Translations under genes and position numbers: made by a program
Part shown: positions 1 to 20,000 of the stretch, one piece after another
Numbering within the stretch: position 1 is the first letter of the stretch
How the letters are laid out: each line of letters opens with the position of its first letter
The notes under the pieces: generated by a model
What the model was told of the DNA's origin: nothing
Database searches by the model: none
The model's input: only the letters and a program-made list of their open reading frames with translations
Source of the DNA: Euglena gracilis
Taxonomy: Eukaryota
Reading direction: 5' to 3'
DNA length: 20,000 nt
NCBI GenBank assembly: GCA_039621445.1
Contig: CP154954.1
Coordinates: forward strand, 32,378,420 to 32,398,419

Positions 1-182
1 CGATTTTTTCGACTTTTTTGACCCAGTTTTGACCCAAAGTCAATGGGTCGGCGGTCCAAAACGGGGCGCTGGCGGGTCGAAATACGCTCGTTTTCGGCTC
101 AAAAACAGTTTTTCTGGGTCCGGGAGGCCAAAAAGCATCGTTTCGGGCAAAAAATTTTCGATTTTTTTCGAGTTTTTTGGCT

Positions 183-601
183 GAAAACGGCTAAGTCGAA
201 CAGAGGGAAAAGTGTACAAAATGGCCTGAAACGGCCCAAATTGGCCAAAAAAACGCCCGTATCTCGGGCTGGGCGGGGAGTTGTGGGGAAACCAAAATCC
301 CAGTAGATAGAGCGTTCCAAGGGCATCAATTTAGGTCTCCAGACATTTCCTTTGATTTTGCATCATTTTCGAGAAATTTTGAAAACATCGATTTTTTGAC
401 CCCCCCACCCCCCGAAAACGGCTAAGTCGAGTAGTGGGAAAAGTGTACAAAACGGCCATCTGCGGGCTGGGCGGGCGGGGAGTTGCGGGGAAATCAAAAT
501 ACCGGTAGATGGGGCGTTCCAAGGGCTTCAAATTAGGTCTCCGGACATTTCCTTTGATTTGGCTTCATTTTGGAGATATTTTGAAATATGACATTTTTTG
601 G
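183..601. repeat. Diverged tandem duplication, ~230-bp unit (copies start at 183 and 414), in an OSCP intron
   Basis: Both copies share GAAAACGGCTAAGTCGA...GGGAAAAGTGTACAAAA...GCGTTCCAAGGGC..CAA.TTAGGTCTCC.GACATTTCCTTTGATTT. Confidence 0.85.
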
Positions 602-7182: not shown

Positions 7183-7902
7183 GGGTAAACCCCCCCCCCC
7201 ATTTAAACCGACCCGTCGGTTTAGGACTTTTGGGTTGGCGGAAATCCTGGAGGGGGTCGGTTTAGACGGGGGGTCGGTTTCAGGGGAGCACACGGCTGGC
7301 CACGGAAGCGGGTTGATGTTAGCAAGGCAATTTCAATTGGCAAATGCCCAATTTGGTCGGCCAATTCCTAAATTTGAGGGACAAATGCCTAATTTGGTCA
7401 GCCAATTCCTAAATTTGAGGGACAAATGCCCAATTTGGTCGGCCAATTCCTAAATTTGAGGGACAAATGCCTAATTTGGGATGCAAATGCTTAATTTTTG
7501 GGGGCAAATGCTGAATTTTGGGTGTAATATCCAATTTTTGGTGGCAAACTGCCTAATTTTGGGTGCAAACTTCAAATTTTAGATAGCAAATGCCAAATTT
7601 TGTAATTTTTTGGTTCCAACACCAAATTTTCGGAGGAAAATGCCCAATTTGAGGTGCAAACTCCAAAATTTGGAAGCAACTGCCTAATTTTGGGTGTAAA
7701 TCTCAATTTTGGGTCATCAAAACTATTCAATGAGCATGGACGCTCTTTCCGTTGGCGGCTTCCATTATGTTGTGCATGTTTGTCATCCAACTTGCCATGG
7801 GTCGGTTTATTTCTTTTTTTGGTTGAAATTCTGCAATGGGTCGGTTTGGAAGGGTAGGTCGGTTTAGAAGGGGAGTCGGTTTAAATGGGGGGGGGTTTAC
7901 CC
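7183..7902. mobile_element. MITE-like element with ~28-30-bp TIRs, subterminal GTCGGTTT motifs and an internal 21/42-bp tandem array
   Basis: GGGTAAAC(C)nATTTAAACCGAC at 7183-7212 and GTCGGTTTAAAT(G)nTTTACCC at 7875-7902, the latter followed by TA. GTCGGTTT recurs near both ends. Confidence 0.75.
7340..7712. repeat. Tandem array: 42-bp unit (GCCAATTCCTAAATTTGAGGGACAAATGCCYAATTTGGTCR) decaying into 21-bp degenerate units
   Basis: Three near-identical 42-mers at ~7360-7480, followed by CAAATGC..AATTTT.GG-like 21-mers. Confidence 0.85.
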
Positions 7903-9030: not shown

Positions 9031-9253
9031 TTCCCAATTCCCCTTTCCCAATTCCCAAAAGCCTTCGCTTTCGCCTTGGCGCACCTACTTGGGAACTGAA
9101 AATCAGAGTAACAGTAAAAACCCTTTTCCCACTTCCCAAGAAGCAAAGCACGGAGCAATGCGGGGAGGACGGACTGGAAATCCAAGTCCGGTCCAAGGAA
9201 AGGAAGGAAAAGGTATCAGAAGAATACCACCTGTGGAGAGAGAAGGGGCACCC

Positions 9254-9392
9254 ATTCTATCTAATAGGATTCTATCTAATAATAATTCTATCTAATAATC
9301 TAATAATAACACTAATTCTATCTAATAATTCTATCTAATAATACCCATTCTATCTAATAATCATTCTATCTAATAATATTCTATCTAATATC

Positions 9393-9429
<37 letters not shown>

Positions 9430-9455
9430 TCTATCTAATATTCTATCCTAATAGG
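9254..9455. repeat. AT-rich mini/microsatellite: (ATTCTATCTAATA)n with an embedded (TAA)n run
   Basis: Repeated TTCTATCTAATA units are directly visible; pure TAA run at ~9392-9428. Confidence 0.95.
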
Positions 9456-10340: not shown

Positions 10341-10354
10341 CCTCACCTGCCTTT
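10341..10354 (-). promoter_or_regulatory. Polypurine tract (plus-strand primer), AAAGGCAGGTGAGG
   Basis: 12 of 14 nt are purines and the tract abuts the LTR's TG. It contains the TGA stop of the last ORF. Confidence 0.7.
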
Positions 10355-12574
10355 ATCGGCTGGGCGTTCGCGCACCTCACGCCAGTAGTCGTGTTGGGGG
10401 TCCCCTAATGGGTCCTCAACCAACTCCAGTTGGCGTGGGGAACGCGGCGGAGCTGATTCACTCCGAATGGTGTTGAGCTCCGGATCGTTGACATCAAAGG
10501 AAGGGGTCTCCCAGTCCTTGATCCAATTATCCGGCAGCTTCTCCCTGGTACGTTCAGCATGATGCTGAAGATAACGTTGGAGTTGCTCCCAGAAAATTCT
10601 GGGCAGCATCACCGGCCAGATGATGTAATTCATCCGGGGGTGATTCGCAGGCACCTGCGGGGGCATCCCCGGGGTCTGCTTGAAGTTGATGTCATACATC
10701 CACCTCGCTGTCCGAGCTCTTGCGGTATGGGGCCGTAATACAGCCGCCAACCAACCTCTGAAGTCCACCAAATCGTGTTCTTCAGGAGGCCACAGTGGCA
10801 AGGCGTATCCGCCATGCTGACGCTTGGAGAACAGGGGGTAAACCTGTGTCTCCCAGTCGCCATCAGTCCAGAGGTAAGGCATTCTTACCTTGGCGTGTTC
10901 CTCGACGGCGAGGCGCATTGCCCCAGCGTCGATCTGGAACTCACGGGCCATTCCCGTGTGGCGGTAGCTTTCTACCTTTCGGAAGTCGGAGTGCTTCAGG
11001 CGGCCTTCCACCTGCTTGTACTCCTTCTTCCACTTCTCCAATGTCTCCCAGTGCTGGGGGACAATGGTGGCGACTGCTCCATCAGCAGTCTGCACGAACT
11101 TGCCTCCTATACAGTTGATGCACAAGGCAGGGATATCCCTGTCGTGAGCATTCTCACTGTAGGAGTAGTTCAAGCTGTGCTTCCAGGCATTCAGGCACTC
11201 GCCACATACGAGCGCCACACAGTTCGGCACATATGCCCTGTGGTGGAACCACGAGGATTGCACCTGCCGCTTGCACACATGCACAAGCGGTTGGTTGTGC
11301 CGCACATGGTGGCACACGGTGCACGTCCAGGCAAAGGACGTGCCGTGCTGGAAATCCAACACGCAGTCCTCGCCAAAGTACTGTGCCAGTACTCTGGGTG
11401 AGCGCCTGTTCCAGAATGTCCAGGTATGTTCCGGGACATAGTGGAAAGGTTCTCCGCGGACGAAGAGGGGCTGAATCCATCGATTCAGTGACCCTGTCTG
11501 GTGCCTAATAGCAGCCAGTTTCTTCGTCCTCTCTTCCACGGTACCTAGTCTGGTCAGGATATCCTGGGTCCAGAGCTGGGCATCCGCAGACACAGGAGGT
11601 GAAGCAGGTTCATCCTGCTCCTCATCCGTCGATCCGGCGGAAGACTGGGCCTGTCGACCACGAGCCTTACCTTTCGGTTTGCTCTGGCCGTACCCGGACG
11701 ATGCAACGGCCGAATAGTCGTGCATTGTCGTTTGGCCTTTCGGCTGTCCGCCAGTCTGACCTCCAGCGCCACCTTTCGGTGGTGGTTTCCCATCACCGCC
11801 TTTGGAAGGGGGCTTACAGGGTGCAGCACCCGGTTTGCCTCCTTTCGGCTTCGCACTCCCGGAATCAGGAGGCGACGCCTGCGGCTTACTCCTGGTATCA
11901 GGAGCCGATGGTGCCGGAGTAGACGTTTGCCGTCTGGGCGAAGCGGGCATACTGACCGCTGGGTCCCGCATGACGCTCCGAGGGGTTGGCACTCGTTCCT
12001 GGGGTTGTTCAGCCGGCCGTCGCCGAACAGGTTCATCCTGTCCGACGAAGCGTGGCACTGTGGTCGTCACCGGAATCGGTGCTTCCACAGGCGCTGGCGC
12101 TCCCAGAAACTCTGCCATTGTCCTCGGGACGGCAGGGACCCTGCGCGGTGTCGGTGGTCGTGGGGGTATCTCCTCCACTTCCATTTCGACATCTGGTCTA
12201 GGAGGTTGATCCTCCACAACCGCTGGCGCAGGTGCTACGGGAGGTTGATCCTCCGCTGTAGCGTGTGCGACAGATGGCTCTGTCGCCTGGGGTTCATCCC
12301 CTGATGGTGGTTGCACTGCTGCCGGAGATGGGGGTGCGGGGACACCAACATCTGGTGTCTCCACGACCTCGGCGGCGGAGCTTGATGCTACGCCTCCACC
12401 TCGTGGCGTTAGTGCAGCAGCCACGGCAGTAATGCCAGTGACCACGGCGCCGAGCACACGGCCTCCTAACGAGGTGCGTGCTGTGGGGCTGGCAGGATCT
12501 TCGAGGATATCCTCGACGACCATACCAGTCACCTCGGCTGGGGGCTCAGCCGTCGGGACAGGCGTTGCAGCCAC
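10343..12574 (-). CDS. Retrotransposon-borne orphan protein, C-terminal part (743 aa): long Pro/Ala-rich disordered region, RING-like Cys cluster, globular tail
   Basis: Long ORF ending inside the PPT. CTVC...HVC...CVALVCGEC...CINC at 11111-11323. Confidence 0.78.
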   Translation of the reverse strand: MAATPVPTAEPPAEVTGMVVEDILEDPASPTARTSLGGRVLGAVVTGITAVAAALTPRGGGVASSSAAEVVETPDVGVPAPPSPAAVQPPSGDEPQATEPSVAHATAEDQPPVAPAPAVVEDQPPRPDVEMEVEEIPPRPPTPRRVPAVPRTMAEFLGAPAPVEAPIPVTTTVPRFVGQDEPVRRRPAEQPQERVPTPRSVMRDPAVSMPASPRRQTSTPAPSAPDTRSKPQASPPDSGSAKPKGGKPGAAPCKPPSKGGDGKPPPKGGAGGQTGGQPKGQTTMHDYSAVASSGYGQSKPKGKARGRQAQSSAGSTDEEQDEPASPPVSADAQLWTQDILTRLGTVEERTKKLAAIRHQTGSLNRWIQPLFVRGEPFHYVPEHTWTFWNRRSPRVLAQYFGEDCVLDFQHGTSFAWTCTVCHHVRHNQPLVHVCKRQVQSSWFHHRAYVPNCVALVCGECLNAWKHSLNYSYSENAHDRDIPALCINCIGGKFVQTADGAVATIVPQHWETLEKWKKEYKQVEGRLKHSDFRKVESYRHTGMAREFQIDAGAMRLAVEEHAKVRMPYLWTDGDWETQVYPLFSKRQHGGYALPLWPPEEHDLVDFRGWLAAVLRPHTARARTARWMYDINFKQTPGMPPQVPANHPRMNYIIWPVMLPRIFWEQLQRYLQHHAERTREKLPDNWIKDWETPSFDVNDPELNTIRSESAPPRSPRQLELVEDPLGDPQHDYWREVRERPADKGR

Positions 12575-14142
12575 AGGTATATCCCCTGCAGGTGCTTCGT
12601 CTGGCCTAGGCTGTGCCAGAGTAGCACGTTCTCACCTACCTCCTCAGGTAGTTCCTGGTCTCCACCTACCGGTGGACAGACGGAAGCCGCCGCGGGAGCC
12701 GGGGAAACCGATCGTTCCCCTGCCGCTCGCGGGGCAGAGACGAAGGATACAGCCGTTCCTGTCGGAGACGGCGGCGTTGCCTCCAGTATGGTGACGGAGG
12801 GGCTGCGGTCGCGTTCCTCCCGCCGCGGAATCGCAGTGGTGGAAGCGACTGACGCCTCACGTCTCCTTCGCGCCAGAGGTTCATCCTCTGGGGCGATGAA
12901 GGCGCGCAGATCCTCGGGCGAACGAGGATCGTCGGGGTGCCATCGGCATCCCTGGGCATCCGCCAGCCTGTAAAAGGCCAGCGTACTGCTACTGGCGCTG
13001 TTGGGCCAGGGTGGCGGCCATGATGGCTGCACCCAGGCGTTGGCAGGCCTGTTCGGGCCCAGGAAGCCGCGGTAACGCGTGTCCTCCCAGACCTCGAAAA
13101 AGCCCTCCTCGAACTCCTGAACGCATGCCAGAATCGGCATACGCTGGTCGAGGATGGCCTTCGGGTGAGACATCAGCGGAAGGAATACCTCCCGGTCGAG
13201 GGTACCGCCAAACTGTCGCCGCAAATGTTCCTCCAGGCTGATATCAGCCAGGTGCCAGTTGGGGCGCAGGTGGCCGAGAATCCGACGACGAGGACCCTCG
13301 ATGGCGTCACCGTAATCCGGTGGCAGGCTTTCCATACCAGGCCTATCGTCCTGGGGGTCACGGAGATGTATATACACCTCCATGACATAGGTGGTCCAGG
13401 CTCGCCACCAGAACTGCTGCAGCATAAAAATACGCTGCTTGTGGACGCGGCGACTTTTGCCCTGGACATCCGGGGCGTCGCGGCACACATGCATAAGCAT
13501 GCGGCGTCCCATCTCCAGGCCCGGGTTATCCCGAGGCGGTGGAGGACTTCCGCGCACGCCGAATCCCCAGAAGTCGACAGGAAATTCCTGCCGGCAGTAC
13601 TTACAACAGAGGTCATACCTCTGCGGGTAAGCCAGGGAAACAGGCCTAACGCGGAAGGTGGAGCCGTAACGGCTCACCAGCCATACCTGAAGGTTGTTGC
13701 ACCACAACACCTCGATCAGGCGTTCGATGTCGGGGTGTAGTGGGTAGAATTCCCACTGCACGCCGAGGGGTCCGACTGTATGAATACAGTCGAAGACTGC
13801 CTTCAGCCTTCGGGCCAACACACGCTGGTCCCGAAAACCCAACTGGTGCAGGTAACTGCGACCAGTGGAATCGCTGAAGAGACCCCAGTTCTGGCAGGGG
13901 TATCCCAGCCAAAACCAGAGTTCCCAGAAACCCGGCTGGGCATCCAGCAAGGGTCTGCCACCTTCACCTTCGAAGGCGTACAGATCTATTCCGTAATGGA
14001 ATAGTCTGACTCGGTTCTCGGTGTGGCGTAATACCACATCGATGACTGCTTGTGGAGGAGTGACGGGGCGGTTTCCTGCAACATGGTAATCATGCTGCAT
14101 TCGCCAGCCTTCGTCCTCCAGCTCCTCCTTGAACCTGAGCAT
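12529..14142 (-). CDS. Retrotransposon-borne orphan protein, N-terminal part (537 aa; probably 5'-truncated and frameshift-linked to the next ORF)
   Basis: Long ORF with globular, W/F/Y-rich composition and a CKYC...MHVC possible C2HC finger. It ends in an A/P/S/E-rich tract. No family recognised. Confidence 0.75.
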   Translation of the reverse strand: MLRFKEELEDEGWRMQHDYHVAGNRPVTPPQAVIDVVLRHTENRVRLFHYGIDLYAFEGEGGRPLLDAQPGFWELWFWLGYPCQNWGLFSDSTGRSYLHQLGFRDQRVLARRLKAVFDCIHTVGPLGVQWEFYPLHPDIERLIEVLWCNNLQVWLVSRYGSTFRVRPVSLAYPQRYDLCCKYCRQEFPVDFWGFGVRGSPPPPRDNPGLEMGRRMLMHVCRDAPDVQGKSRRVHKQRIFMLQQFWWRAWTTYVMEVYIHLRDPQDDRPGMESLPPDYGDAIEGPRRRILGHLRPNWHLADISLEEHLRRQFGGTLDREVFLPLMSHPKAILDQRMPILACVQEFEEGFFEVWEDTRYRGFLGPNRPANAWVQPSWPPPWPNSASSSTLAFYRLADAQGCRWHPDDPRSPEDLRAFIAPEDEPLARRRREASVASTTAIPRREERDRSPSVTILEATPPSPTGTAVSFVSAPRAAGERSVSPAPAAASVCPPVGGDQELPEEVGENVLLWHSLGQTKHLQGIYLWLQRLSRRLSPQPR

Positions 14143-14146
14143 ATGC

Positions 14147-16552
14147 TCAAAGTCCGAGAGGATGATCCTCAGGAGTCCATTTCTTAATGGCCTCCATCTT
14201 ACTGGGTGTGGCTTTACGCTGCCCGTTGCTCAGGATGTGTCCGCAAAACTTAATAATCTTGCGAAACAGGTGCATTTTGGAACCCTTCACAAAAAGCACA
14301 TGCTTTTGGAACGCGGATAATACCGCGCGCACATCGCGATAATGCGGGTCGAGGATATCCTCGCCCGATTTCGCGGATGGCGGTTGGGTTCCCACCAGTA
14401 CATCATCGATGTACACCAGAGCAAACGGTAAATCGCGCAAAACCCACTGGATCATGCGTTGAAACATGGCTGGGCCATTCTTAACACCCATGGGGAGTAC
14501 CGTCCATTGGTACACACCCTTGGATGTCACGAATGCCGTGTACGGTTGCGAATCAGGATGCAAATGCATCTGATGGAAACCGTCTTCCAGATCAAAGATT
14601 GACCACAACCGGTTATCCGATTGTTTTGTGATCAAATCCTCGATCAGCGGTAACGGGAAGGGGTCATCCTTCGTTTGGGAGTTCAGGTACCGGTAATCCA
14701 GCACTAGTCTCCACTTCTTCTGACCAGACTGGTCAGCGGGTTTGGGCACCACAAAAGCTTGTGATGTCCACTCGCTCTTGGAAGGGATAATCCACTTCCG
14801 CTGGATGAGCTTCTCAATCATCTCGTTGAGAGCCTGTTCGCGTTCACCCGAACAACGGAAAAATTTCCGGTGCATGGGTTTAGCGCCATCCTTGAGCTCG
14901 ATTTTGCATACACCGAACGGACCGCGAATCGCGGGGTCGATGTCGCAGGCGTAAACTGGATTATCCAGTACACCATGAAATTCGCGAGTAATTCGCGAAC
15001 AATAGTCAGCAGACTTGGGGTGTTGGTCCGCACTCTCAATGACCGCAGAAATCTGCGTTGAGGGTGTGGCATCCCCATTGGTACCAAGGTATCTTGGCAC
15101 ACGCAAATCGGATATTCCGAATGCGTCAAAGAAACAAACGCGAAAAATGATTTCTTTAACAGGTGGTAATAATATACCACAAAAATCCTCAAATAGTGGT
15201 ACATCAGCGGGTAAATCCCACCAATGAAAACACACATGGGATAGTTGGTGAAACCAATCCGCATTCTGATTGACGGGTATGAGGAGAGCTCCTCGCGCTT
15301 CATCGCGGAGGATTTTCTCCACCACATCCGGGATAAGTTTTGGGGGAGGGTGCATCCATAGCACCGTATCACCCCAAAATTTTAGAAATGCGTTGGTATG
15401 TCGCGACCAATATCGCGACAAGCGCGCATGCGCTTTTGATGAAAACGCATCAATTTCCAATGACAAATCGAAGGAATCAGCCAAAACCGCGATTTTGGAG
15501 AACCATTCCTCCAAAATACGGTATTGACCAAAATTAAATGCATTCCATACACGCATCCCGTATGTGTCGACCTGCTTCGCGGGTTGAAGAGCGGTAACGC
15601 AATTCAAGGATCCGCAAACATAGGTCAAGGGTGTGTCATCCACACTCCCAAGGGGCATTCCCAAGGGTTGATGGGTTGGATGGGTACATACCCAGTCCAT
15701 ATCATGCCAGATGGAGGTGGGGGAGGTGTGTGACACGGATTTCGCGGTCCCAAACAACAAGGCAATACCTCGTTGTTGGAGCACTTGATGTACAGTCGCG
15801 CATTGCGATCCGCAACCAAGTGTATGGGTCCGCGAAATAGGGATTAGTGTTGGTGTTTGGACTAAACATCCACAATCGAAATCTGGCTGGGCGGAAATTC
15901 TCCTACAGTGCACACGTTGGAAGAAAGTGTCGGAGTAGTGGTCCTGGTCGCGCATGTTGGTCTGGTGGGGGTGTGTGTAAAAGTTGGGATGCGCTGTTGT
16001 AGCTGCTGGGGGGTGTACAGATGTATCTGAAAGCGATACATCTGGTGGAAAACGGGGTATTAGTGCAGCTGGGCGACTACTCGACACCGTAATTACTTCA
16101 GGCCTTTGGGCTTTCGTCTTGTAACCCAGTGGAACGAGGGGGGTACCGCTACTTGCTTGCCCTGCCTCGCGGGGAACGGAAGTTGGTGTGTCAACGGGCA
16201 GGGGGTGAACTTTCTCGGTACACCCGGTGTGGAAAACGTTGGTTGGTGTGGTTGGTAACGGGGTAAAAGTTTTCGAAAACGGTGTGGAAAAATTGGTGGC
16301 TATCGCGGTTGACGCCACAGGTGATGAGGGTTTGGGGGGCAATGAGGAGAATGGTGATGTGCGCAAACCGTGGGAGTGGCAATCCACTACCAGCCGGTGC
16401 TGACGTAAAAAGGGGTATCCCAGAATTACGTCAGAACCATGGATTCCGGATTCATATCCCCAGGTATCCGGAAAATTTTGCGGTTGGGGGGGGTGAGTGG
16501 TGCTTGGGGACGAGGGGTAGGACAATGTCCAAAAAGCATCCCAAGTCACCAC
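14147..16552 (-). CDS. pol: Pol polyprotein fragment: protease C-terminus, Pro/Thr and Cys/His-rich linker, MTase-like domain, reverse transcriptase; truncated before RNase H
   Basis: RT motifs WRLVLDYRYLN, PFPLPLIEDLI, IFDLEDGFHQM, TAFVT..GVYQWTVLPMGVKNGPAMFQR, YIDD (14402-14413) and KFCGHIL. The ORF stops shortly after EAIKKWTPE. Confidence 0.93.
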   Translation of the reverse strand: MVTWDAFWTLSYPSSPSTTHPPQPQNFPDTWGYESGIHGSDVILGYPFLRQHRLVVDCHSHGLRTSPFSSLPPKPSSPVASTAIATNFSTPFSKTFTPLPTTPTNVFHTGCTEKVHPLPVDTPTSVPREAGQASSGTPLVPLGYKTKAQRPEVITVSSSRPAALIPRFPPDVSLSDTSVHPPAATTAHPNFYTHPHQTNMRDQDHYSDTFFQRVHCRRISAQPDFDCGCLVQTPTLIPISRTHTLGCGSQCATVHQVLQQRGIALLFGTAKSVSHTSPTSIWHDMDWVCTHPTHQPLGMPLGSVDDTPLTYVCGSLNCVTALQPAKQVDTYGMRVWNAFNFGQYRILEEWFSKIAVLADSFDLSLEIDAFSSKAHARLSRYWSRHTNAFLKFWGDTVLWMHPPPKLIPDVVEKILRDEARGALLIPVNQNADWFHQLSHVCFHWWDLPADVPLFEDFCGILLPPVKEIIFRVCFFDAFGISDLRVPRYLGTNGDATPSTQISAVIESADQHPKSADYCSRITREFHGVLDNPVYACDIDPAIRGPFGVCKIELKDGAKPMHRKFFRCSGEREQALNEMIEKLIQRKWIIPSKSEWTSQAFVVPKPADQSGQKKWRLVLDYRYLNSQTKDDPFPLPLIEDLITKQSDNRLWSIFDLEDGFHQMHLHPDSQPYTAFVTSKGVYQWTVLPMGVKNGPAMFQRMIQWVLRDLPFALVYIDDVLVGTQPPSAKSGEDILDPHYRDVRAVLSAFQKHVLFVKGSKMHLFRKIIKFCGHILSNGQRKATPSKMEAIKKWTPEDHPLGL
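15115..15530 (-). other. Dam-like/DIRS-type DNA amino-methyltransferase-fold domain within Pol
   Basis: IDAFSSKAHARLSRYWS...NAFLKFWGDTVLWMHPPPKLIPDVVEKILRDEARGALLIPV....DWFHQL aligns by eye with the DIRS1 MT consensus D(L/A)FAS..N.....Y.S...DAF...W.....(N/F)PPF.LI..VL.KI......L..P.W....WF..L. Confidence 0.75.
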
Positions 16553-16817
16553 CGCACATGGGGGTGTTGTCAGCCGTCGTAATTTTGATCGGCTTCTTGG
16601 CTTTCACCAAGAGGGGGGTTGGTATCAACCCGAACCGAAAAAGTAGTGCAATGCGACAACCAGTGTCAATGAGAATTTTGACTTTTGTACAAAAATTTTG
16701 GATTTTGATTTCCGCTTGGACCAAAAGTTCCATGGGGGGTAAGCAAAGTGAAGGGTCTGGCGAAAATACGTTTTCTTGCCAGCTTTCCCATGAACCCTTT
16801 CCTACTTTGCACAACAT
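16390..16817 (-). CDS. pol: Retropepsin-like aspartic protease, split by a +1 frameshift at the G8 run 16486-16493
   Basis: KILIDTGC active site (DTG at 16659-16667) and flap-like IKITTADNTPM in ORF 16452-16817. The C-terminal DVILGYPFL motif (~16407-16432) is in the next frame. Confidence 0.85.
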
Positions 16818-16938
16818 TCCGAGCGGAAAGTTGGAGTGGGGGGTGGGGGACCCGAAAATTTTCCGGGTACCGACCAGAAAGGCAGATGGGCAGGGGGGGG
16901 GGGCAGGGTTGATTAGGTCCTACCTCCATCTGTTCATC

Positions 16939-16977
16939 AGCCCAGAGGTCCGTGCCCTCGGACCTCGGGCTCCCCTA
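16939..16977 (-). promoter_or_regulatory. Candidate gag-pol recoding signal: UAG-GGG followed by a 13-bp stem-loop
   Basis: Minus strand reads TAG GGG AGCCC GAGGTCCG agggca CGGACCTC t GGGCT, and the frame stays open after the TAG. Confidence 0.55.
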
Positions 16978-17590
16978 CTCCAGGTCCGAACCGGCCGAAT
17001 AGCCGGCTATGGGCCTTTTAGAGGTATAAACGGATTTCAACGTGCGCACCGCCATGCGGGCCTCGTCGAAATCGGTATCCGTGGTCTCATCCCCCTCCCT
17101 GCCCGAAGCCGGGGTGTCATCCTCCAAACAAGATATCTTGAAACCGACTTTATGGCGGTTGGAGGAGTGACCCTTGTCACCGCGATTCATACCGCGATGA
17201 CGTTGGCCAGGACGGGGAGGACGAGAACGCGGGCATTTGGATGAGTGGTGATCACTCGATCCACAAAGAGAAGACCGAGATTTGTGTCGCGATTCTAGGT
17301 AACGGGGGGATCGGTTTCCCGATTTCCCGTCAAACCGTCGTGGTGAGCGGGTATCCTGTCGACCATGACCGGTGTATCGGGGTTTTCGTGATGAGGATCG
17401 CGAAGAAGATGATCCGCTTCGCGAACGCGATCGCGATGTCTCGCGATGAGAATCACGCTTCTTGGCCGGGGCACCGGGTGACCTACCCCGAGGGGTACCG
17501 TGTTTCCGCTCATCGCGGAACGGGATCCGGGGGCTAATACCACCGGAACGGGGACGCGATGACCGTGAATTGCCCGATTGGTGTGATTGC
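16975..17590 (-). CDS. gag: Gag C-terminal continuation in the +1 frame: RS-rich tract, degenerate second knuckle, acidic tail ending in TAG
   Basis: Manual translation of the +1 frame gives QSHQSGNSRSSRPRS...ETSRSRSRSGSSSSRSSSRKPR...SSLCGSSDHHSSKCP...GSDLE*. It is open to 16975 and continues the S/R/G-rich sequence after knuckle 1. Confidence 0.7.
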
Positions 17591-19927
17591 GGAAGAACCC
17601 GAACCTCGTGATGAGGTCGAGCCTCGCGGACTCTGAATACGCTTTCGCGCTTCAGGATTAGGACATTCCCGAGACATATGTCCCGATTTGTTGCACAAAA
17701 AGCACACTTTATCCGTGGCGTGGTCCGAAGAACGCGGGTATCGCGTTTTCGATCCCCTGGTGGGTGAAGTGGGTGAAACCGGTGATTTTTGCAATGCGTT
17801 TACCGAACCAGCCAGTAATCCAGCGGTTGGGTGTGCGGTATACGCGGATTGAATCTGACCAAGAAGCTGTGATAGCTTCAATTGCTTGGAAACGTAGTTC
17901 CAGCGTTGGTCAAGAGTCATTGCATTACCCGCCAACTCCTCACGGTGGATATCCTTGATGAGGCTAGGCGTGAAATGCATGAGAACAGCGTCAAACTGTT
18001 CGCGCATTTGCTTTTCACTGAGTTCATCCACTTCAGCGGCAAGTCCCAACCATTTGGCATACCAAAGGTCAATGGACTTCCATTTGCGATCGGGTGGGGC
18101 GCATTGCCGCCACTTGGTCTCCAGGGTAATCCTAGCGACCAAACTTGAACTGGTGGAAGCGTATTGCTCCACCAGGTCATCAAAGGAAACGCGGTAGCGA
18201 ATGACGAGTTGTCGCGCGCGCTCCTTCTCATCCCTAGGGAGGCAATCGATGAATTCCATCTTGATCACCTCCGGGTTTGTGTCCTGGGTTGGCCCTTTCA
18301 ATGCCCAGTAGTACTCCCAGTCCCGGAAAAACTGTCTCCATGTGGTTGGATCACCATTCCACTGGGGTTTCACCTTATTCGCGATTGCGATGGTACCCTT
18401 GAAGTCTTTCTGAAAAACCCGTTGGCCCTCGGTGGTATTCCGTGGATTCGGGCCCGGGTACGCTCGAGCACCAAGCGTATCCTTTCCGGATTCTTGTCGG
18501 AATCGCGAAATTTCTGGTGAAGGTGAATCCTGGTACCGGAAATCCGGTCGCAAACCCTGTTGGTCACCCGTAATAGGGAGACTCTCCGGTGTGGGGGTAT
18601 GTCGCGCATGCAACATGTGACCCACTCCCGGTGTACGGGTTTGGCTCATTCCACGCACAAGCATGGAATGATGGATTTCTTGGTGGAGACTTGGCGGAAT
18701 CGCCGTGTTTTCCGCGAATTCGGTTCCCGTAATGGGAGATTCATCCGAAAACTGGGTTTGGGTTGTGGACAAGGCCAATGGTGGCACAATTCGCGGAATC
18801 GCGGATTGTGACACTCGGGACACGGGTGGTGGTGGTGCATGTGCACCCAGAGCCGGGTTATGAAAACGCGACTCTGGAACATTTGGCGCATCTTCGGCAA
18901 TGCATACTGCCGAATTGCGGTGTGAAACCCGCTGTTGGTTGGACACATTATCCAAACCCACAGACAAGTCATGCACACTTTGCTCCAAATGCTCAACGAG
19001 TTGGAGTTGGCCGCAAATACGGTCAACTTCATCCTCCAAAGCGCGAATACGCTTACGGTAACGGGAAAAGTCATCCAAGTGCGGAATCCTTTCGGAAATT
19101 CCGGTAACATCTTGGACAAGTTTCCCGTGAGACTTATCCAATAATTGGAGTTGTCCCATTAATGCTTTTACAGCATTTGAGAGAATCTGCAAAGGTGATG
19201 TCACCTTGGTTGGTGTGGTGGTGGGTGCAACCGGTGCAGGGTTATCCGACAACACGGTTGTGGTACCCATGGGCAAATTTCCAGGTTGTGGGTTATCCAA
19301 CAACGCGGAAATTTGCTCATCCAACCTGGTAATCTCACTTTGCGTGGATCGGGCATTCCGATTCACCGATTCCTCAAGCCGTAATAGGCTGTTGCAGAAA
19401 TCTTGCAAGGTTTCCTGATTGTTAGTGAGCATTTTGTCATAAAATGCCTTGAATTCAGGGTTCTCGGTCATCCGAGAACTGGAACCTGCAGGTAGAGACT
19501 GCATTTCCGTTACTTTGGTAGACACCGATGCATACCGGGTCTGGAGTTCCCCAATAGCAGTCTGAATGCCGCTAATGTCCGGAACTCGGTGGGAAAGTGC
19601 GGAACAGCTTTGTTGCAAACCCGCAATGGCCGAGTTAATCCCGCCAATGTCGGATTGCAACTGCAACTGCAGGGAATCCTGCCGTTGTGCCATTTCCGCG
19701 ACTTTCGCGCTCAGATTGGATAATCCAACCTGATTCGCGTCACAATAGCAGGTTTTCTGCTCCAAACGGGAAAGTCGCTCCTCCAACTGCCGCACATACG
19801 TGTGGGGAGAAAAATTCTCGTTGGCTTGTGACTGGAATTGCCGAAACTTTTCCGTTTCATCGCACAACTGCATAATGCGGTGTTGCGATTCATGGAAAGT
19901 TGCGGACAATGTGGTGAAATGGTCCAT
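17534..19927 (-). CDS. gag: Gag polyprotein (coiled-coil N-terminus, capsid-like domain, CCHC zinc knuckle)
   Basis: First ATG at 19927, with an in-frame TAA at 19988-19990 upstream. Heptad-rich N-terminus; capsid-like KPQWNGDPTTWRQFFRDWEYY...FIDCLP; CFLCNKSGHMSREC (CX2CX4HX4C) at 17663-17704. Confidence 0.9.
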   Translation of the reverse strand: MDHFTTLSATFHESQHRIMQLCDETEKFRQFQSQANENFSPHTYVRQLEERLSRLEQKTCYCDANQVGLSNLSAKVAEMAQRQDSLQLQLQSDIGGINSAIAGLQQSCSALSHRVPDISGIQTAIGELQTRYASVSTKVTEMQSLPAGSSSRMTENPEFKAFYDKMLTNNQETLQDFCNSLLRLEESVNRNARSTQSEITRLDEQISALLDNPQPGNLPMGTTTVLSDNPAPVAPTTTPTKVTSPLQILSNAVKALMGQLQLLDKSHGKLVQDVTGISERIPHLDDFSRYRKRIRALEDEVDRICGQLQLVEHLEQSVHDLSVGLDNVSNQQRVSHRNSAVCIAEDAPNVPESRFHNPALGAHAPPPPVSRVSQSAIPRIVPPLALSTTQTQFSDESPITGTEFAENTAIPPSLHQEIHHSMLVRGMSQTRTPGVGHMLHARHTPTPESLPITGDQQGLRPDFRYQDSPSPEISRFRQESGKDTLGARAYPGPNPRNTTEGQRVFQKDFKGTIAIANKVKPQWNGDPTTWRQFFRDWEYYWALKGPTQDTNPEVIKMEFIDCLPRDEKERARQLVIRYRVSFDDLVEQYASTSSSLVARITLETKWRQCAPPDRKWKSIDLWYAKWLGLAAEVDELSEKQMREQFDAVLMHFTPSLIKDIHREELAGNAMTLDQRWNYVSKQLKLSQLLGQIQSAYTAHPTAGLLAGSVNALQKSPVSPTSPTRGSKTRYPRSSDHATDKVCFLCNKSGHMSRECPNPEARKRIQSPRGSTSSRGSGSSAITPIGQFTVIASPFRWY

Positions 19928-20000
19928 AGACACAAATCCCCCACTGCTGGATGTTGCAGACGAGGAATCTCGTGCATGCAACTGTTGTTACAAATGCAAC

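Follow-up and report, generated by a model that had tools for sequence, protein, structure and literature searches.

A 20,000-nucleotide stretch of Euglena gracilis contig CP154954.1 (positions 32,378,420 to 32,398,419), called here the window, carries on its minus strand a retrotransposon Pol frame in which a Dam-like domain with a predicted methyltransferase fold lies between an aspartic protease (PR) and a reverse transcriptase (RT). We describe this element, its relatives, and the state of the catalytic motif in the domain. The minus-strand frames were taken from stop to stop, five of them were scanned for Pfam families, and all coordinates of the element given below refer to the minus strand. 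The Pol frame (16603..14147) is open over 818 codons, which cover the C-terminal part of the protease, the Dam-like domain and the RT, and it closes a few codons past the RT. The Gag frame (17534..19987, 817 codons) is coiled-coil-like in its N-terminal half and carries a C-terminal CCHC zinc knuckle, CFLCNKSGHMSREC (17657..17707), matched by zf-CCHC PF00098 at residues 761-777 of the frame with an E-value of 2.1e-5. The N-terminal half of Gag also gave a Pfam NPV_P10 match (E 6.6e-7, residues 108-165, 19493-19666), which is probably compositional. The 5′ end of the element, with any long terminal repeat (LTR), lies beyond the window end (base 20000).

The aspartic protease (16366..16730) is split over two frames and gave a weak Peptidase_A3 match (E 0.088). 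Its active site, LIDTGC, is read in a short frame (16919..16452) with the DTG triplet at 16667..16659, while its C-terminal part, GSDVILGYPFL...VVDC, forms the start of the Pol frame; both DTG and GSDVILGYPFL align with the proteases of relatives. The window copy shifts its reading frame more than once in the interval that separates the Gag stop from the protease frame (16920-17533), and a third frame there (17799..16975) is rich in Arg and Ser. In the linker that leads from the protease to the Dam-like domain and otherwise evolves fast, alignment with relatives located a cysteine motif (15866..15916). It reads CxxC-x10-CxC (C..C.RI..Q.(D/N)(F/Y)DCGC) in the relatives, and in the window Arg replaces the first Cys. 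The motif is common to the proteins P0001, P0003, P0004, P0006 and P0009, and nearly so to P0005, and its four cysteines may form a zinc knuckle.

The Dam-like domain itself, of the class-I methyltransferase fold as predicted, occupies 15107..15556 (Pol residues 350-499, about 150 residues). The sequence IDAFSS stands at the motif I position (15437..15454), at the end of the first strand and in the following loop, and HPPP at the motif IV position (15341..15352; codons CAC CCT CCC CCA). The sequence LLIP...WF comes after HPPP, and the RT follows 120 residues further on (Pfam RVT_1, 14231..14746, E 4.1e-27, Pol residues 620-791), with its YIDD motif at 14413..14402. These three motifs had been reported in an initial annotation of the window as a block directly upstream of the RT and in the same frame, which is how we found them. 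The place that it gave for the domain is also correct, and its limits (15115-15530) are slightly narrow for the folded unit. Rfam at the gathering threshold and a tRNA scan gave no match within the window.

Besides RVT_1, Dam (PF05869) was the sole Pfam family matched on the Pol frame. The E-value was 6.7e-5 (23.1 bits) for the whole frame and 6.9e-6 (26.3 bits) for a 191-residue piece (15044-15616), the match covering profile positions 22-105 of 169, from the DxF motif-I region to past motif IV. A phmmer search of 1.84 billion cluster representatives with this piece retrieved 413 proteins at E≤1e-3, of which 96 passed a cut-off of 1e-10 and 11 one of 1e-30. The window piece was aligned with 66 of the shorter phmmer relatives, and 53 of these 67 sequences matched Pfam Dam at E≤1e-3, the best of them at 2.6e-12; for this reason the homology of the window segment to Dam is supported transitively. 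The consensus of the alignment is VDAFAS...W....DAF..W....LWxNPPFS....VVxKI..D.A.GI...P.W....WF..L, in which the WMHPPP of the window aligns with LW(I/M)NPPF, and the residues D56, F58, W81, P91, K101, P114 and W121 are conserved in at least 90 % of the sequences. Among 20 long representatives scanned, Pfam Dam was matched at E≤0.01 in 18, eight of them above the gathering score; in P0003-P0006, P0009 and P0018 the match remained sub-threshold at 17-25 bits. The NCBIfam model TIGR01712 (phage_N6A_met) recognized the window piece only at E 0.063, under both curated cut-offs, and the relative P0024 at E 3.7e-8. These data support the assignment of the segment, by homology, to the Dam (PF05869) group.

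The AlphaFold2 model of the 191-residue piece reached a mean predicted local distance difference test (pLDDT) of 88.6 and a predicted template modelling score of 0.79, with pLDDT above 90 for most of residues ~31-170. In this model IDA (55-57) forms the strand preceding the motif-I-like loop, and HPPP (89-92) comes directly after the strand VLWM (85-88) and leads into a helix, which is the classical motif IV position. A second model made with members of the lineage alone reproduced the domain at pLDDT 80-97 per block. The linker preceding the domain was predicted to be disordered there (pLDDT <50), and for the part with the cysteine motif, modelled at low confidence (pLDDT 55-68), no fold is claimed.

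The AlphaFold2 model was then aligned by VIA-align with 48,161 representative PDB chains. The best match was PCIF1 (Z 10.8, root-mean-square deviation 2.5 over 126 residues), followed by PH1948 (10.2), KsgA (9.2) and METTL5 (9.1), and further down by T4 Dam (8.4), M.BseCI (8.2), M.TaqI (7.9) and EcoDam (7.8). Of the 48,161 chains, 18 gave Z≥8, with N6-adenine methyltransferases in the top rows, and judged by their titles nearly all of the best 50 rows are methyltransferases dependent on S-adenosylmethionine (SAM) or proteins of the same fold. Among the structural matches the RNA N6-adenine methyltransferases outscore the DNA ones by about 2 Z units. We take this ranking of modelled similarity as a lead only, which gives no evidence for an RNA substrate. 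A combined AlphaFold and Foldseek check had been proposed in the initial annotation: its first half gave the confident model, its second half returned no PDB match at E≤1e-3, and the structural matches came from VIA-align. As modelled, the domain is a compact, folded class-I, Rossmann-type methyltransferase module flanked by linkers of low conservation, one of them with predicted disorder, and the Dam-like fold first proposed for it thus agrees with the Pfam family, the phmmer relatives, the model and the structural alignment.

The class of the element was evaluated from its RT and from its relatives. The nearest solved relatives of the RT are Ty3 RT (4ol8_A, E 4.7e-38) and Ty3 Gag-Pol (7q5b, 3.8e-37), with RTs of the murine leukaemia virus type at about 1e-18; this is a comparison with solved structures, among which the PDB holds no DIRS RT, and the class assignment does not come from a tree. 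When the domain region was searched against 5.8 billion proteins by a word index, P0001 was the sole match (one of 340 candidates; 67 % identity, 1208 residues). This metagenome protein is 68 % identical to the window Pol over the shared length, and downstream of the RT it carries RT_RNaseH_2, RT_RNaseH and Integrase_H2C2 in the Pfam scan. RNase H and integrase are not in the window, where the copy ends at 14162/14167. No tyrosine recombinase was matched in the five frames scanned with Pfam.

The order of domains is shared with other proteins. Dam followed by RVT_1 was found in 6 of the 20 long relatives scanned (P0004, P0018, P0024, P0029, P0060 and P0087), of which P0018, P0029 and P0087 continue with RNase H and Integrase_H2C2, P0029 also with rve, and a weak protease match precedes Dam in P0003, P0013 and P0042. 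In the alignment of P0003, P0004, P0005, P0006 and P0009, the protease is followed by the linker with the cysteine motif, the Dam domain, and the sequence VS..IES.SPHP...DIDP.IRGPFGV. The protease of these five relatives reads LIDTGCRIP...GSDVIIGYPFL...VDCP in a single uninterrupted frame; P0003 and P0009 end near DIDP.IRGPFGV, and P0004, P0005 and P0006 extend into the RT. These results support the assignment of the element to the Ty3/Gypsy type and not to DIRS, as first proposed from the RT. They also support a PR-[methyltransferase]-RT order that recurs in many independent cluster representatives (P0003-P0006, P0009, P0018, P0029 and P0087).

Other arrangements were met among the relatives. 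In P0116, the Dam domain is flanked by an integrase core (rve) on one side and a Copia-type RT (RVT_2) on the other, and P0120 has the DIRS-like order RT-RNase H-Dam-like, its Dam-like part matching Pfam PCIF1_WW and not Dam. A first scan of metagenome DNA found no relatives of the element. A second one found only L001, a different and rearranged element, and L002, a weak RT match. In L001 (292-1707, plus strand) the RT is 67 % identical to that of the window, and the open frame after YIDDVLVGT enters a Dam domain with NPPF; a second RT fragment lies head-to-head upstream (3-446, minus strand), which gives the locus a rearranged or nested look.

The copy in the window is dead, because its protease is split over two frames and its Pol is cut just past the RT. 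At the break point (14162..14167) the alignment with P0001 ends at KKWTPE and the contigs of other copies diverge. On the element side, contigs of other copies (26 from run X1, 2 from X15, 3 from X16) continue into the apparent start of a P0001-like RNase H linker, and those contigs of X15 and X19 whose match lies left of 14162 go on into other sequence. Since the contigs coming from either side diverge at the break, the element is cut off there and abuts a different repeat. Small length differences separate the window from contigs of other copies at the places where it shifts frame, including 16920-17533.

The family to which this copy belongs is very abundant, with tens of thousands of fragments in the host. 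On 12500-20000, 64,964 contig pieces of run X1 aligned at a likeness of at least 85 % (19,034 at 99 % or more, 4,713 below 90 %), in contig layouts that show neither expression level, strand nor copy number. The summed contig depth over the Dam block is about that over the RT and Gag, which argues against a private insertion of the domain in this copy. The stretch or part of it is contained in 20 sequencing runs, 14 of which are DNA-type runs of one organism. In runs X15 and X16, from two other organisms, contigs of 903 bases match 15159-16061 with 19-20 differences, and a contig of a leaf-litter metatranscriptome (X19) spans 14828-15808, with the whole Dam domain, at 31 differences and no gaps. 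This last contig is compatible with transcription and is no proof of it, as contigs from RNA libraries may be DNA carry-over.

In the (D/N/S)PP(Y/F/W) motif of amino-methyltransferases, the residue at the first position forms a hydrogen bond with the amino group to be methylated, and the aromatic one at the fourth stacks on the flipped-out base. The HPPP of the window has neither the Asn-Pro-Pro nor the following aromatic residue. In the phmmer alignment (151 proteins, 153 stretches, 140 with residues at motif IV; counts summed by hand), the most frequent motif is NPPF, with 49 of the 140 stretches. At the first position, N occurs in 92 stretches, H in 29, C in 13 and other residues in 6, the share of H being inflated by the ranking of the relatives on their likeness to an H-type query. 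Among individual relatives, the motif is HPPL in P0001 and HPPP in P0008 (75 % identical), HPMF in P0006 and HPPF in P0010, NPPI in P0002, P0003, P0007 and P0012, NPPV in P0005, NPPL in P0009, NPHY in P0004, and YPPI in P0011. One of the readings first offered for the motif was decay in this one copy. That reading does not hold: since P0001 has HPPL and P0008 HPPP, the H-first motif is a trait of the lineage and not private decay.

An alignment of the lineage, made of the window and 11 relatives, placed this variation against the rest of the domain. Over the 12 members the first residue of motif IV is N in seven, H in four and Y in one, and the fourth is aromatic in three. In contrast, W197, P200, D166-A167-F168, K211 and 16 other columns are invariant, as are D, A, F and S of the motif-I-like sequence. 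It thus appears that relaxation in the lineage has affected precisely those two residues of motif IV that are linked to catalysis, the hydrogen-bond partner and the stacking aromatic. In BLASTP alignments of the window with P0001, the identity was 115/149 (77 %) without gaps for the Dam domain (15107..15556), 109/267 (41 %) with 45 gaps for the linker from the protease to the domain, and 225/257 (88 %) without gaps for the RT, constraint being expressed here as protein identity to this one relative and not as a ratio of nonsynonymous to synonymous substitution rates. By this measure the domain as a whole is constrained despite the relaxed motif IV.

We consider it probable that the window holds a dead, 3′-truncated copy of a very high-copy Ty3/Gypsy-type DAM-LTR element whose Pol carries a degenerate or repurposed Dam-fold domain; DAM-LTR retrotransposons have been described in several eukaryote groups (Fernandez-Moreno et al., bioRxiv, May 2026, 10.64898/2026.05.21.726589). 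The domain is read as degenerate or repurposed because the catalytic residues of motif IV have drifted while DAFSS and the scaffold are invariant. For the H-type sub-lineage, the odds are even or slightly better that canonical N6-adenine transfer has been lost or much changed and that the module is kept for a binding role. The domain is presumably made within Gag-Pol and packaged next to the RT. Translated with Pol and carried into the particle beside the RT, it could meet there the RNA template, RNA:DNA hybrids and the nascent cDNA. The drift of motif IV from NPPF to HPPP or HPPL would remove the Asn hydrogen-bond partner and the adenine-stacking aromatic and leave DAFSS and the scaffold in place. 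The module might then be retained for binding SAM, nucleic acid, or a host factor (for example the machinery of N6-methyladenine, 6mA) during or after reverse transcription.

A broader proposal, which we make only tentatively, is that the relatives sharing PR, CxxC...CxC, DAM and RT form a distinct Gypsy lineage that keeps a pseudo-Dam, with motif IV drifted and the fold, the DAFSS loop and the scaffold residues invariant, and that has still multiplied to tens of thousands of fragments in its host. If this were true, the benefit of a DAM to a retrotransposon would not need methyl transfer, and the domain could act by binding SAM or nucleic acid or as a recruiter of the 6mA machinery. Profile screens with strict thresholds would then under-count such elements.

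Several observations weigh against the reading of a degenerate or repurposed domain in a DAM-LTR element, in addition to the inflated share of H-type relatives and the use of a single relative to estimate constraint. The loss of catalysis is deduced from the amino acid sequence, and a His at the first position of motif IV could still accept a hydrogen bond. The motif IV Asn is kept by 7 of the 12 members of the lineage. Both Pfam Dam scores of the window lie under the gathering score of 28.1 bits. The best Foldseek match, PCIF1/CAPAM (6irw_B), stopped at E 3.6e-3, and PDB sequences searched with a profile yielded nothing at E≤1; the tie to solved structures is therefore one of fold only. Within the window, the element has no long direct repeats on its flanks. 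Since neither end of the element is in the window and the contig of P0001 is cut, the term LTR element is based on the Pol domains. Finally, according to the preprint, DAM-LTR copies in ichthyosporeans and Euglena carry raised levels of 6mA.

This last report agrees with the alternative that best survives, namely that the domain is still an active amino-methyltransferase in which His replaces Asn, and with which the element marks its cDNA or an RNA:DNA intermediate with 6mA, a role that the preprint puts forward for DAM-LTRs. Both the fold and the motif-I-like DAFSS remain intact, the two prolines of motif IV are kept, the domain is far closer to P0001 than the linker is (77 % versus 41 % identity), and H-first motifs in 29 of the 140 stretches look like a stable state. 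However, the adenine-stacking aromatic is absent and replaced by P or L, as in the inactive METTL14 (PMC5023411), and the first and fourth residues of motif IV vary within a lineage whose scaffold is invariant. Moreover, in the E. coli assay of the preprint even canonical eukaryotic DAMs produced no 6mA. We thus regard an active enzyme as unlikely, while leaving it a real minority chance.

It is very improbable that the element is of the DIRS type, or that a DIRS Dam fragment was nested by chance in a Gypsy Pol. The Dam-like methyltransferase is classically a DIRS1 feature, with the order RT-RNase H-methyltransferase (PMC3266345), which is also the order of P0120, and DIRS RTs are related to Gypsy RTs. 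Nevertheless, PR, Dam and RT lie here in a single uninterrupted frame of 818 codons, and the same order is found in P0001, where Integrase_H2C2 follows, and in P0003-P0006, P0009, P0018, P0029 and P0087. The element has a protease and a Gag with a zinc knuckle, the frames scanned gave no recombinase match, and the Dam block is covered to the same depth as the RT and Gag. A chance resemblance, with short motifs in an unstructured Pol linker and no methyltransferase fold, could be suspected from the sub-threshold Pfam score and the non-canonical catalytic tetrapeptide, but its probability is negligible, as it is refuted by the 413 homologues (11 at E≤1e-30), by two independent high-confidence models, and by structural matches at Z≥8 to 18 of 48,161 chains with N6-adenine methyltransferases on top.

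The sequence on the left of the break (10343-14229, minus strand) is a different repeat, GC-rich (58-64 %) and equally high-copy. It contains two long minus-strand frames, 14229..12529 (566 codons) and 12631..10343 (762 codons), which matched no Pfam family and found no homologue in word-indexed protein searches at near lengths. An Atlas feature search gave a C5-DNA-methylase lead at 0.84 for the first frame, below 0.9 and without support from Pfam, so that this function is not claimed; for the second frame, which has a Cys/His-rich stretch, the search gave nothing at 0.77. Elsewhere in the window we noted a tandem array at 7339-7721 with a 41-base period and a 20/21-base sub-period (~260-380 bases), an AT-rich, microsatellite-like block including (TAA)12 at 9253-9453, and a run of 36 G at 818-853.

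Among proteins of related fold, the phage-type small Dam (PF05869; TIGR01712) shares the profile region with the domain, which is here part of a eukaryotic polyprotein with HPPP and not a free-standing enzyme. The best structural match is PCIF1/CAPAM, the cap-specific mRNA N6-adenosine methyltransferase (6irx/6irw). The sequence identity to it is 11-12 %, PCIF1 has large extra domains, and the common fold does not show a common substrate. METTL14, which pairs with METTL3 and is itself catalytically inactive, has EPPL without the stacking aromatic at a site called degenerate (PMC5023411). It shares with our domain the N6-adenine methyltransferase fold and the change of motif from (D/N)PP(aromatic) to xPP(aliphatic), EPPL there and HPPP or HPPL here. 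METTL14 is retained for a non-catalytic role, and we compare it with our domain purely by analogy, as the two are not close homologues.

Within retroelements, DIRS1-like elements carry a Dam-like methyltransferase domain in the order RT-RNase H-methyltransferase, and its function is stated as unknown in the two works cited (PMC3266345; PMC5890265). The domain family, and its place within a retroelement Pol, are the same in both cases. The DIRS1-like elements, however, have a tyrosine recombinase and neither protease nor integrase, whereas the domain lies here between PR and RT in an element of the integrase type.

The closest known system is that of the DAM-LTR elements. A full-text literature search found one work that reports a Dam-like domain in integrase-type LTR elements, the preprint cited above (10.64898/2026.05.21.726589). 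The central idea of the initial annotation, that an LTR lineage captured a methyltransferase, thus stands, and its novelty does not. As the text of the preprint has it, 53.9 % of 10,030 eukaryotic DAM proteins have retrotransposon features, and DAM passed from DIRS to Ty3/Gypsy-like elements in at least four independent transfers. Five DAM-LTR lineages are distinguished there: green-algal chromovirus-like, Chloro-Ochrophyta, ichthyosporean, Pyropia and Euglena. The element of the window resembles them in its Ty3/Gypsy-like Pol with a Dam (PF05869-like) domain and RVT_1 in one open reading frame, and in a compact five-strand fold that has neither the N-terminal catalytic nor the target-recognition parts of the prokaryotic enzymes; DIRS elements are the presumed source of the domain. 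Where DAM lies with respect to PR and RT is not said in the text; the figures or supplements may show it.

The main difference concerns motif IV. According to the preprint, 'almost all' DAMs have an Asn-Pro-Pro triplet with an aromatic residue behind it, whereas the window has HPPP and its lineage is largely without the aromatic. The screen in the preprint used a threshold of E≤1e-5, which may under-sample the sub-threshold members of this lineage; for annotation, the domain falls just below the Pfam threshold and can be missed. Our data point to the element in the window as a further very high-copy member of the DAM-LTR elements, and to a lineage of the order PR-CxxC...CxC-DAM-RT whose catalytic motif is relaxed. 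The element thereby provides an independent, very high-copy example for a newly described class of LTR elements with an adenine-methyltransferase domain derived from prokaryotes, and points to a sub-lineage in which the domain is clearly conserved and the catalytic motif is not. The authors of the preprint propose that DAM-LTR domains act on the RNA template, RNA:DNA hybrids and nascent cDNA in the particle, and they saw no gain of 6mA with canonical eukaryotic DAMs in E. coli. If confirmed, the contrast between domain and motif would bear on the question that they raise, whether retroelement DAMs methylate or rather bind and recruit, and the lineage offers natural N-type and H-type variants for this comparison.

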